In this document: in pieces, positions 7,338 to 10,287 of the stretch
How the letters are laid out: every line of letters starts with the position of its first letter
Numbering within the stretch: position 1 is the first letter of the stretch
DNA from: an uncultured Gammaproteobacteria bacterium
GTDB lineage: Bacteria; Patescibacteriota; Patescibacteriia; UBA11705; DATKZF01
Direction of reading: 5' to 3'
NCBI GenBank assembly: GCA_964411255.1
Contig: CAYPKD010000004.1
Location: forward strand, 13,093 to 77,092
Length of the DNA: 64,000 nucleotides
The notes under the pieces: generated by a model
What the model was told of the DNA's origin: nothing
The model's input: only the letters and a program-made list of their open reading frames with translations
Databases searched by the model: none
Position numbers and translations under genes: made by a program

Positions 7338-8048
7338 ATGCATGAAAAAAGTTCAAAATCTTTCGAATCCCAACTCCAAATGGCCCGCCCCAAGCGTGCT
7401 GAGGTTAAGCGTGTGCCTTTAACTCCAGAAGAGAAAGAATTTTTAAGAAAAATTATGGATAAGGCAGTGGCTGCGGAAAAGGCTGGAGATTTGCAGCAAG
7501 CTTTGAATTTATATACGGATTATAAAAATGAATTATTAAAAATTAAAGAAGAAAAAGAAAAAAAAGAAAAAGAAGAAAAAGAAGAACGAGGGGGAATTAA
7601 ATGGACAAAGGAAAAATTAGAAAACTGGATTGCTAGCATTGGAATTGCTGAAGAAGATTTTGTGGAACAATATTTTGATTTATCCAAGTTGCCAAAATTA
7701 GAATCAAAAGGTTCTTTGGATTTCAGCAACCTTATGATTGATATGTTTCCTGCTGATATGAAAGTTAAAGGAACTCTTACGTTGAGTAAATCAGTATTTA
7801 GAAAGGGGTTTGGTTCCGGATTGATCGTTAAAGGAGATCTAATAATGAATCGTTCAGCTATTAGTCATTTACCTAATAATATAAAAATTGATGGTAAATT
7901 AATTTTACGAAATTCAACAGTACAAGATTTACCTGATGATATATACATTGGTTCAGATATTTGGGTTGGAAATTGTAAAGAAAAAGTAATTGAAAAAGCA
8001 GGAAGACTTAAAGCTGAAGGAAAAATTAAAGGTGATGTTAAATATTAA
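7338..8048 (+). CDS. paralog family member A2 (mosaic with A4)
   Basis: Same N-terminal module. Central ERGGIKWTKEKLENWIASIGIAEEDFVE and C-terminal LPDDIYIGSDIWVGNCKEKVIEKAGRLKAEGKIKGDVKY are identical to A4. Confidence 0.8.
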   Translation: MHEKSSKSFESQLQMARPKRAEVKRVPLTPEEKEFLRKIMDKAVAAEKAGDLQQALNLYTDYKNELLKIKEEKEKKEKEEKEERGGIKWTKEKLENWIASIGIAEEDFVEQYFDLSKLPKLESKGSLDFSNLMIDMFPADMKVKGTLTLSKSVFRKGFGSGLIVKGDLIMNRSAISHLPNNIKIDGKLILRNSTVQDLPDDIYIGSDIWVGNCKEKVIEKAGRLKAEGKIKGDVKY

Positions 8049-8056
8049 TATCAAGT

Positions 8057-8764
8057 ATGAAATCAGAAAAAGCTGCACAATCACTCGAATCCCAACTTCA
8101 AATGGCCCGCCCGCGGCGCCATGAGGTTAAGCGTGTGCCTTTAACACCTGAAGAAAAGGGATTTCTCGGCGATATTATGGATAAGGCAGTGGCTGCGGAA
8201 AAGGCTGGAAAACTAGCTGAGGCAATTGAATTTTATACAGATTATAAAAATGAATTATTAAAAATTAAAAATAGGATTGAGAAAGAAGAAAGAGGGGAAA
8301 TAGAATGGACAAAGGAAAATCTGGTGGAGTGGGCAAAAGATATAGGTAAGGATGAAAAATTTGTAGAAGATAATTTTGACTTAACTAAATTACCTAAACT
8401 TGAAACAAAGAGCGATTTGACCTTAGATTTTGCAGTTATAGATAAATTCCCTGCAGCAATGAAAGTTAATGGAACGCTTATTATGAACAATGCAACCATA
8501 AAAAAATGGATTGGAACCAATTTAAGTATTAGAAGAAATTTATTTTTGTTTGGAGCAAAAACTGATTATCTGCCAGATAATACTATGGTCTTTCAAGGCA
8601 ACCTCGATATAAGCCAAAGTTCAATTAAAGATTTGCCAGATGATATCTTTATTGGAGGTAGTATTTCAATTGAAGGCGCAAAGCATGAAAAAAAATTAGC
8701 CCAAAAAGCAAGAGAATTAAAAGCCAAAGAGCAAATTGAGGGAGAAATTATTACTAATATGTAG
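8057..8764 (+). CDS. paralog family member A3
   Basis: Same N-terminal module (MKSEKAAQSLESQLQMARPRRHEVKRVPLTPEEKGFLGDIMDKAVAAEKAG..). Divergent C-terminal repeat region. Tail ..AKEQIEGEIITNM. Confidence 0.8.
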   Translation: MKSEKAAQSLESQLQMARPRRHEVKRVPLTPEEKGFLGDIMDKAVAAEKAGKLAEAIEFYTDYKNELLKIKNRIEKEERGEIEWTKENLVEWAKDIGKDEKFVEDNFDLTKLPKLETKSDLTLDFAVIDKFPAAMKVNGTLIMNNATIKKWIGTNLSIRRNLFLFGAKTDYLPDNTMVFQGNLDISQSSIKDLPDDIFIGGSISIEGAKHEKKLAQKARELKAKEQIEGEIITNM

Positions 8765-8797
8765 TCTGTCGATGAGTTTATTTAACTAAAAATATTT

Positions 8798-9508
8798 ATG
8801 AAAAAAGAACAACAATCATTCGAATCCCAACTCCAGATGGCCAGACCAAAACGATCTGAGGTTAAGCGTGTCCCATTGACTCCAGAGGAAAAGGAATTTC
8901 TGGGTGAGATTATGGGCAAGGCTGTGGCTGCTGAGAAAGCTGGGGAATTGAAAGAGGCTTTGAATTTATATACGGATTATAAAAATGAATTATTTAAAAT
9001 TAAAGAAGAAAAAGAAAAAAAAGAAAAAGAAAAAGAAAAAGAAGAACGAGGGGGAATTAAATGGACAAAGGAAAAATTAGAAAACTGGATTGCTAGCATT
9101 GGAATTGCTGAAGAAGATTTTGTTGAAAATCATTTCAATTTATTTAAATTACCAAAATTAGAATCAAAAGGTTTTTTAAATTTCAGCAACCTAATGATTG
9201 CCACATTTCCAGCCAATATGGAAGTGAATGGAGATCTTATACTGCAAAATGCTGAGGTAAAAAAATGGATTGGCTCTGGATTGAGAATAACAGGAGGTTG
9301 CAAATGTGTCAGCGCAAAAATAAAAAATTTGCCAGAAAGAACTACGATTCATGGTGATCTGTCAATAATAAATTCAACTATTGAGGATTTACCTGATGAT
9401 ATATACATTGGTTCAGATATTTGGGTTGGAAATTGTAAAGAAAAAGTAATTGAAAAAGCAGGAAGACTTAAAGCTGAAGGAAAAATTAAAGGTGATGTTA
9501 AATATTAA
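8798..9508 (+). CDS. paralog family member A4 (mosaic with A2)
   Basis: Same N-terminal module. A middle block different from A2 is flanked by blocks identical to A2. Confidence 0.8.
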   Translation: MKKEQQSFESQLQMARPKRSEVKRVPLTPEEKEFLGEIMGKAVAAEKAGELKEALNLYTDYKNELFKIKEEKEKKEKEKEKEERGGIKWTKEKLENWIASIGIAEEDFVENHFNLFKLPKLESKGFLNFSNLMIATFPANMEVNGDLILQNAEVKKWIGSGLRITGGCKCVSAKIKNLPERTTIHGDLSIINSTIEDLPDDIYIGSDIWVGNCKEKVIEKAGRLKAEGKIKGDVKY

Positions 9509-9516
9509 TATCAAGT

Positions 9517-10287
9517 ATGAAATCAGAAAAAGCTGCACAATCACTCGAATTCCAGCTTAAAATGGCCCGCCCGCGGCGGGCAGAGGTTAAGCGTGTGCCT
9601 TTAACTCCAGAAGAGAAAGAATTTTTAGGAAAAATTATGGATAAAGCAGTGGCTGCGGAAAAGGCGGGGAAATTGCAGGAAGCATTCGATTTATATACTG
9701 ACTATAAAAATGAATTGTTGAAGATTAAAGAGATAAAAGAGAAAGAAGAGAGAGGAAAAATTCAATGGACAAAGGAAATGCTGGTAAAGTGGGCAGAAGA
9801 TATTGGTAAAGATGAAACACTTGTTGAAAAAATTTTTGATTTAACTAAGTTACCAAAATTAGAGACAAAAACATCTACAAATTTAGGTTTTTTAGAAATT
9901 AAATTTTCCATGGATGAGTGTCCAGCTAATATGACGGTTAATGGAAATCTTGATCTTACAAGAGCTGAGGTGGCAAGCTGGATCGGATCTGGCTTGATAG
10001 TTAAAGGTAATTGTGACTGTTCTAAGACTAAGATAAAAACATTACCAGAAAACATTAGGATTGAAGGTGACTTAATATTAAAGGATTCAAAAATCGAACA
10101 TCTACCTGAAAATATAATAATTATGGGTGATTTAAAATTATCAAATTCAAATATTAGGAATTTGCCTGATAATTTAATTGTTCATGGAAATGTTTATATG
10201 AGAATGTGCAGGGCAGATGCAGTTTTGAAAGCACAAGAGCTGAGAAAGCAGGGAAAAATTAAAGGTTCAGTTTATGCTCGTGCATGA
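9517..10287 (+). CDS. paralog family member A5 (clearest 20/21-aa LPENIxIxGDLxL repeats)
   Basis: N-terminal module. Three tandem repeats: KIKTLPENIRIEGDLILKDS, KIEHLPENIIIMGDLKLSNSN and IRNLPDNLIVHGNVYM. Tail ..RKQGKIKGSVYARA. Confidence 0.8.
   Translation: MKSEKAAQSLEFQLKMARPRRAEVKRVPLTPEEKEFLGKIMDKAVAAEKAGKLQEAFDLYTDYKNELLKIKEIKEKEERGKIQWTKEMLVKWAEDIGKDETLVEKIFDLTKLPKLETKTSTNLGFLEIKFSMDECPANMTVNGNLDLTRAEVASWIGSGLIVKGNCDCSKTKIKTLPENIRIEGDLILKDSKIEHLPENIIIMGDLKLSNSNIRNLPDNLIVHGNVYMRMCRADAVLKAQELRKQGKIKGSVYARA

Follow-up and report, generated by a model that had tools for sequence, protein, structure and literature searches.

The window analysed here, 64,000 nucleotides (nt) of contig CAYPKD010000004.1 from an uncultured member of the Patescibacteria, carries a tandem array of five same-strand paralogs, A1 to A5, between a gene for a PBP2-type transpeptidase (4496–6505) and greA (10369–10824). 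The spacers between the paralogs measure 8–33 nt. Ten further family genes, B1 to B10, lie elsewhere in the window, so that the family contributes 15 of its approximately 70 genes, about one fifth, in 64 kb. Two members of the array, A2 and A4, share long exact tracts that alternate with strongly divergent ones. Most probably they are old paralogs in which ectopic gene conversion has recently homogenised the flanks, following an older duplication of a two-gene unit. The family genes are as follows.

A1, 6635–7309, + strand: opens the five-gene tandem array; 224 amino acids (aa); from the list of open reading frames (ORFs) and the family alignment.
A2, 7338–8048, + strand: 236 aa, with a helical N-module, a linker, a leucine-rich repeat (LRR) solenoid and a C-cap helix; from the ORF list, the family alignment and an AlphaFold2 model, with the same sequence in the independent contigs L006–L008.
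A3, 8057–8764, + strand: 235 aa; its ortholog in a sister species is P0013 (74% aa identity).
A4, 8798–9508, + strand: 236 aa, mosaic partner of A2; same sequence in the independent contigs L004, L005 and L019.
A5, 9517–10287, + strand: 256 aa, with one additional LRR unit; final gene ahead of greA.
B1–B10, 49564–59557, − strand: second set of ten family genes, with queA and the genes for a SpoU methylase and an AMMECR1 protein lying between them.

The tracts shared by A2 and A4 were delimited by a global alignment of 7300–8160 with 8760–9620 and by a direct-repeat scan (repeat families D2 and D3). The alignment confirmed that the identity blocks described in the original prediction are real. 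From the linker onward, the two genes are organised as follows.

Putative conversion tract 1, A2 copy, 7500–7663, + strand: linker, aa 55–109, with an exact core at 7573–7663; synonymous difference (pS) 0.04.
Putative conversion tract 1, A4 copy, 8957–9123, + strand: exact core at 9033–9123; 97.6% identity over 167 nt.
Divergent A2 middle, 7664–7925, + strand: apparently old; solenoid start and LRR units, aa 110–196; pS 0.56–0.65 against A4, no indel.
Divergent A4 middle, 9124–9385, + strand: likewise apparently old.
Putative conversion tract 2 or direct repeat R, copy 1, 7926–8090, + strand: last 40 codons of A2, stop codon, 8-nt spacer and first 34 nt of A3.
Putative conversion tract 2 or direct repeat R, copy 2, 9386–9550, + strand: end of A4, spacer and start of A5.

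The longest match is an exact run of 165 nt at an offset of 1460 (7926–8090 and 9386–9550). It covers codons 197–236 of both genes (DLPDDIYIGSDIWVGNCKEKVIEKAGRLKAEGKIKGDVKY), which bears out the claim that their last 40 or so residues are identical, and continues through the stop codon and the 8-nt spacer into the first 34 nt of A3 and A5 (MKSEKAAQSLE). Because the run crosses a stop codon and a spacer into the next gene, it is not explained by selection at the protein level. The A2/A3 junction, said to be repeated at A4/A5, indeed recurs as a verbatim 61-nt string at 8030–8090 and 9490–9550, the second copy lying about 5 nt from where it had been placed. The central block ERGGIKWTKEKLENWIASIGIAEEDFVE is identical in both genes as well, as had been proposed (exact 91 nt, 7573–7663 and 9033–9123). 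It is part of a near-identical tract (164/167 nt; 7500–7663 against 8957–9123) in which exact runs of 38, 34 and 91 nt are separated by a single substitution (7538) and an indel of 3 nt within a GAA/AAA run. The middle that was noted to differ over about 90 residues comprises 87 aa (aa 110–196; 262 nt) with 48% aa identity, and its nt identity is 79% over 7664–7760, dropping to 54% over 7761–7925. The middles of A2 and A4 are equally long and align without indels, which old sister copies would be expected to do.

The significance of the tracts was examined by permutation, in which the 150 differences were shuffled over the 827 alignment columns 100,000 times. A run of 165 nt or more never arose, nor did a second one of 91 nt or more (the longest shuffled run was 96 nt), and a chance origin of the identity runs is excluded. 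Among the 105 pairs that can be formed from the 15 family genes of the window, only A2/A4 has an exact run longer than 45 nt. The long exact runs of other pairs all lie within the N-module.

For a segment-wise comparison, A2 was divided into five segments. The values below are nt identity and pS (Nei-Gojobori) for A2 against A4, followed by the bootstrap support for the nearest neighbour.

S1, aa 1–54 (7338–7499, + strand, part of the A2 N-module; A4 counterpart 8798–8956): 75%, pS 0.72, apparently an old divergence; A2 nearest to A5 (95%), A4 nearest to A1 (73%).
S2, aa 55–109: 99%, pS 0.04; A2 and A4 reciprocally nearest (100%).
S3, aa 110–141: 79%, pS 0.56; A2 and A4 reciprocally nearest (98–99%).
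S4, aa 142–196: 54%, pS 0.65; A2 and A4 reciprocally nearest in only 2–4%.
S5, aa 197–236: 100%, pS 0.00; A2 and A4 reciprocally nearest (100%).

Inside the tracts pS is thus 0.00 and 0.04, and outside them it is 0.56–0.72. The nearest neighbour switches at four segment boundaries, and since these relationships change between segments, A2 and A4 are best regarded as a true recombinant mosaic. Their N-modules had been predicted to be identical, which they are not: over codons 1–54, A2 and A4 share 75% of their DNA and about 80% of their protein sequence, and synonymous sites are saturated. The N-module DNA of A2 is 90% identical to that of B7 and 86% to that of A5, and only about 80% to that of A4. 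The match with B7, which lies on the opposite strand in the inverted array 44 kb away (7354–7499 against 52191–52336; 90% DNA), exceeds that with any neighbour in A2's own array. This closeness suggests exchange between the arrays. Within the array, A3 and A5 are mutually closest in S2, and A2 and A4 are in S3. In every segment the mismatches are spread over all four bases without an adenine bias.

The AlphaFold2 model, based on a 33-member alignment (mean predicted local distance difference test score, pLDDT, 89), has N-terminal helices at aa 9–100, a beta-solenoid at about aa 115–214 (pLDDT 95–98) and a capping helix at 215–226. On this model, tract 1 corresponds to the helical linker, S4 to internal LRR units, and tract 2 to the last repeat with the cap. 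Internal LRR units are the usual ligand-binding region in such proteins.

We looked for a donor of the divergent middles with blastn and blastp in the window, in the other arrays and among the family proteins retrieved; the closest match was that between A2 and A4 themselves. Among the proteins retrieved from 57 family clusters, blastp found no relative of either middle above 52% aa identity. Blastn against the window and related loci found no match above 80% nt identity; the best, 80% over 108 nt, was again A2 with A4. Because the family offers no third donor for the divergent middle, an old duplication with recent conversion of the flanks is favoured over cassette replacement. The middles look old and the flanks recently homogenised.

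These patterns point to the following history. An old duplication of a two-gene unit, with a period of 1460 bp, would have brought A2-A3 and A4-A5 into register. Long afterwards, misaligned units would have recombined homologously, with sequence being copied non-reciprocally, i.e., by ectopic gene conversion, over two short stretches or along one discontinuous heteroduplex. The stretches copied would be the linker (7500–7663) and the C-cap together with the intergenic spacer and the start of the next gene (7926–8090), the N-module and the LRR middle retaining their old, synonymously saturated divergence. We infer a RecA-type pathway, as we do the number and direction of the events. The outer tract ends at 7500 and 8090 fall in sequence that is conserved in all paralogs (respectively the YTDYKNELLKIKEE codons and the beginning of the N-module that follows), and the inner edge at 7926 coincides with the family-conserved DLPDD motif. 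The position of the edges in conserved sequence therefore fits a homology-driven process. A recent duplication of the 1460-bp unit was rejected, as it would make A3 identical to A5, yet these genes are 50–84% identical depending on the segment. The earlier proposal of segmental duplication followed by exchange holds insofar as gene conversion at the DNA level after an older duplication fits the data; its variant of internal cassette replacement is left without a donor. One finding weighs against the history outlined here: S4 lacks a special A2–A4 affinity although S3 has it. This may be accounted for if one copy had its S4 replaced at an earlier time from a donor that has since disappeared.

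Ectopic, or interlocus, gene conversion is known from bacterial multigene families, such as babA/babB and sabA/sabB of Helicobacter pylori, and from the concerted evolution of tuf and rrn copies. Three hallmarks of the process, i.e., overlong identity tracts, identity at synonymous and non-coding sites and segment-dependent relationships, are present in A2 and A4. As in the known cases, short in-register tracts that are perfect also at silent and non-coding positions are embedded in paralogs of old divergence, the tracts end within conserved sequence, and segments are phylogenetically incongruent. The present case differs in that the host is an uncultured member of the Patescibacteria, the gene family is undescribed and the event is read from sequence alone.

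An alternative that we consider unlikely is that the entire C-domain cassette (7500–8090) was recently duplicated or converted between A2 and A4, after which some 260 nt inside one copy were replaced from a third paralog. In its favour, each tract has its outer end within the N-module of one of two consecutive genes, so that the pair brackets a single C-domain, the S4 segments of A2 and A4 are no nearer to each other than to other paralogs, and the DLPDD motif at the 7926 edge could have served as a recombination anchor. On the other hand, the search for a donor described above was unsuccessful, and S3, with 79% nt identity and its high bootstrap support for A2 with A4, looks like an old vertical divergence of sisters rather than an import.

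A more far-reaching and rather improbable idea is that the 165-bp repeats bracketing the 1460-bp unit, together with the N-module and the DLPDD/C-cap sequence, are built-in anchors by which the symbiont amplifies, deletes and reshuffles LRR modules among several dozen paralogs. If this were true, anchor-driven reshuffling would be a bacterial whole-gene analogue of the LRR cassette assembly in lamprey variable lymphocyte receptors (VLR), varying the specificity of host interaction, and the failure of two assemblies within the variable middle (see below) would reflect real heterogeneity of the population.

Programmed diversification, in which the conserved flanks would act as anchors for shuffling or hypermutation of the LRR middle and thereby vary the binding specificity of a symbiont surface or effector protein, is very improbable. 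The family does combine a constant N-module with highly variable LRR or other C-domains in at least 15 genes within 64 kb, and conserved blocks flank the variable LRR units. Two assemblies from the Joint Genome Institute (JGI) also fail right in the variable middle, which population heterogeneity could cause. However, A1–A5 and the ten B genes are all full-length ORFs with their own start codons, with no silent or truncated cassettes among them, so that a layout of the pilE/pilS type, with one expressed gene and silent donors, is not found. A diversity-generating retroelement was rejected, given the mismatches over all four bases and the lack of a reverse transcriptase both among the ORFs scanned with Pfam and on visual reading of the ORF map; the Pfam scan covered all genes adjacent to the array and ten further ORFs, and the remainder of the window was read by eye only. 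On the same basis no recombinase was recognised beside the array (Pfam) or elsewhere in the window (mostly by eye). As for a shufflon-type system, the A2/A4 repeats are direct and on the same strand, as found in a scan for direct repeats only, inverted repeats not having been searched for. Furthermore, long identity is confined to one of the 105 paralog pairs, and a single synonymous nucleotide polymorphism is all that distinguishes the array between samples. In a collection of 15 billion proteins, the 90%-identity clusters of A2 and A4 contain no recombinant variants, only the forms present in the window and truncated artefacts.

The system resembles pilE/pilS, Borrelia vlsE, Anaplasma msp2 and lamprey VLR in having conserved flanks around a variable, ligand-facing segment, and VLR also in that this variable part consists of LRR units between constant caps. 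It differs from all four because every copy is a full gene, with no division into an expression site and silent cassettes, because no population variants are seen in clusters or contigs, and because the events homogenise flanks only. The suggestion in the original prediction that the exchange is a mechanism for generating C-domain diversity is not supported: the events detected erase differences in the linker and C-cap and do not create any.

An assembly artefact, in which alleles, strain variants or a repeat collapsed or expanded during assembly had been placed in tandem by mistake as A2 and A4, retains hardly any probability. In its favour, the 165-nt repeat exceeds the k-mer size, which leaves the order and the copy number of the 1460-bp unit dependent on scaffolding, and two JGI contigs of the same genome deviate from the window at A2 and A4. 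Against it, contigs of the types X (PBP2-A1-A2-R), Y (R-A3-A4-R) and Z (R-A5-greA) were each recovered at 100% identity with different assemblers and from different samples. Upstream of Y there is nothing but R, so that Y must follow X or another Y, and the 91-nt block is shorter than k, so that the A2 and A4 haplotypes are supported by reads. The MEGAHIT k141 contigs L007 (window 3077–8066) and L004 (7950–9526), the k123-type JGI contigs L008 (to 8048), L005 and L019 (both 7968–9508) and the JGI contig L006 (to 8069) are 99.98–100% identical to the window. Their ends sit exactly k−1 into the 165-nt repeat, at 7926+k−1 and 8090−k+1. Because independent contigs match the window and break at the repeat, both genes and both repeat copies are read-supported in several samples. 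The source samples are JGI 3300017987, 3300018080, 3300029258 and 3300029267, together with the runs underlying ENA ERZ27256770, ERZ27256783 and ERZ27256796. Over about 5 kb, the sole difference between the window and L007/L008 is 7448 A>G, a synonymous change (AGA to AGG, Arg37 of A2). When metagenomes were scanned for a 35-mer pattern taken from the repeat, only one further Y-type contig came up, and no alternative junctions.

The two deviating contigs, Ga0309772_1000068 (L001) and Ga0310068_1000064 (L003), lack about 7835–7946, 9334–9406 and 9283–9406, with the apparent deletions at 6498 and 7885 of L001 and at 1336 of L003. All three junctions restart with ATTGGTTCAG at 7947/9407, i.e., 8090−143, which is also the first base of Ga0310068_1000064. 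The partner contig from the same sample as Ga0310068_1000064 stops at 8069, i.e., 7926+143. Real deletions were rejected, since every junction restarts at a contig-start base and is read as a join at a graph-node boundary; a strain chimera or mis-assembly of the window was rejected on the strength of the independent contigs and this k-mer arithmetic. The joins yield the frameshifted ORFs P0001, P0003, P0059 and P0061. The truncated P0001 and P0003 are the public representatives of the 90% clusters for A2 and A4, which thus probably stem from mis-joined contigs.

The genomic setting of the array was compared with that of related loci. The MreB protein of the window is 71–72% identical to those of a Ca. 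Falkowbacteria metagenome-assembled genome (MAG) and one other uncultured MAG. In these two MAGs and in a further Falkowbacteria MAG, the PBP2 gene is directly followed by greA. No family members occur within 9 kb of mreB in 80 related loci. A sister species (L014, ENA k141_1772732), whose PBP2 gene is 86% identical at the nt level, carries two genes in the interval, P0013, the ortholog of A3, and P0010. The PBP2–greA interval thus holds no such gene in Falkowbacteria-type relatives (L020, L021 and L024), two in the sister species and five here, a series that is best read as stepwise growth of the array through ongoing local duplication and recombination. Judged from these comparisons, the array is a young, lineage-specific and expanding insertion in a Ca. 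Falkowbacteria-like Patescibacteria genome, and in such an array unequal crossing-over and gene conversion would be expected.

Upstream of the array, the following element was found.

Terminator-like hairpin, 6564–6583, + strand: 3' of PBP2 and 5' of the array.

Within the array, a promoter and terminator scan gave signals at background level only and predicted no internal terminator. Co-transcription of A1–A5 is likely because a hairpin follows PBP2 and none is predicted within the array. Rfam and tRNA scans of the 64-kb window yielded no tRNA gene and no Rfam family at the gathering threshold.

Further arrays of the family occur on other contigs. A third array of four genes lies downstream of cysS on a 170-kb contig (L012, 8539–11434), with a gene for a protein resembling TrbC/type IV secretion system pilins about 3 kb away (14348–14734). 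In a related organism, a gene of the bAvd/23S-rRNA-IVP family, which has the fold of an accessory protein of diversity-generating retroelements, lies about 3 kb upstream of another family array (L015, 1721–2056); no reverse transcriptase is listed on this 8-kb contig. Elsewhere in the window, a G+C island at 22001–24000 (0.47, against 0.29–0.37 elsewhere) contains a 472-aa ORF (22294–23712) that matches no Pfam family and shows weak NCBIfam matches only, and no Rfam RNA gene is found in the island. Small solenoid-type proteins without the N-module are encoded on the minus strand at 37997–38464, 38938–39528 and 28603–29064. The second is a pentapeptide-repeat protein above the Pfam threshold (33.5 bits), the first is below it (18.3 bits), and the third, of 153 aa, carries a 'IIVNGDLELNPE' motif that resembles an LRR.

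In both sequence and fold, the array proteins are significantly similar to a solved LRR protein with an FlrP-like beta-solenoid, although no LRR family was found at E ≤ 1 in Pfam and none in NCBIfam. Neither database has a family for the array proteins or for the other C-domains joined to the N-module. Vibrio FlrP (PDB 8z5u chain 0), which binds to the rod of the polar flagellum, is a small beta-solenoid of LRRs (bioRxiv 10.64898/2025.12.04.692373). Whereas FlrP has a Sec signal peptide and lacks the N-module, the N-terminus of the array proteins is hydrophilic, carries a helical module and, by eye, shows no obvious signal peptide. Again in contrast to FlrP, neither the window nor the related loci examined were noted to have a flagellar context.

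The N-module weakly matches the first two helices of the MIT domain (PF04212) in A1–A5 and several relatives (E 0.0016–0.019; 1e-5 for P0044). The scores are below the Pfam gathering threshold of 30 bits (15.5–18.9 for A1–A5, 25.9 for P0044), and the profile also matches TPR/PPR-like repeats. Although the N-module is modelled as helices too, it is only weakly MIT-like and membership is not established. It is also found on other C-domains, in B2 (58184–58906, 240 aa) and B3 (56676–58157, 493 aa), which have non-LRR C-domains with about ten 'KWFxVNEKGEK' repeats in B3, and in P0034, P0042 and P0049 (350–396 aa).

An exhaustive HMMER search of 1.84 billion representatives with the N-module profile returned 54 proteins at E ≤ 1e-3, 20 of them at E ≤ 1e-30, and a word-indexed search gave 57 family cluster representatives. 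The family is absent from GTDB species representatives, as a search of the genome contigs with the family alignment gave no relative. In the literature we found no description of the family or of gene conversion in paralog arrays of Patescibacteria. The family is undescribed, extremely narrow and lineage-specific.

The mechanism is ordinary, textbook gene conversion, and it is the gene family and the host carrying it that are new. The array provides a clean and statistically solid case of interlocus gene conversion and array expansion in an uncultured, reduced-genome lineage of the Patescibacteria, where recombination dynamics have seldom been documented. It also draws attention to a narrow protein family, not described before, in which a constant helical N-module is fused to FlrP-like LRR or other C-domains.

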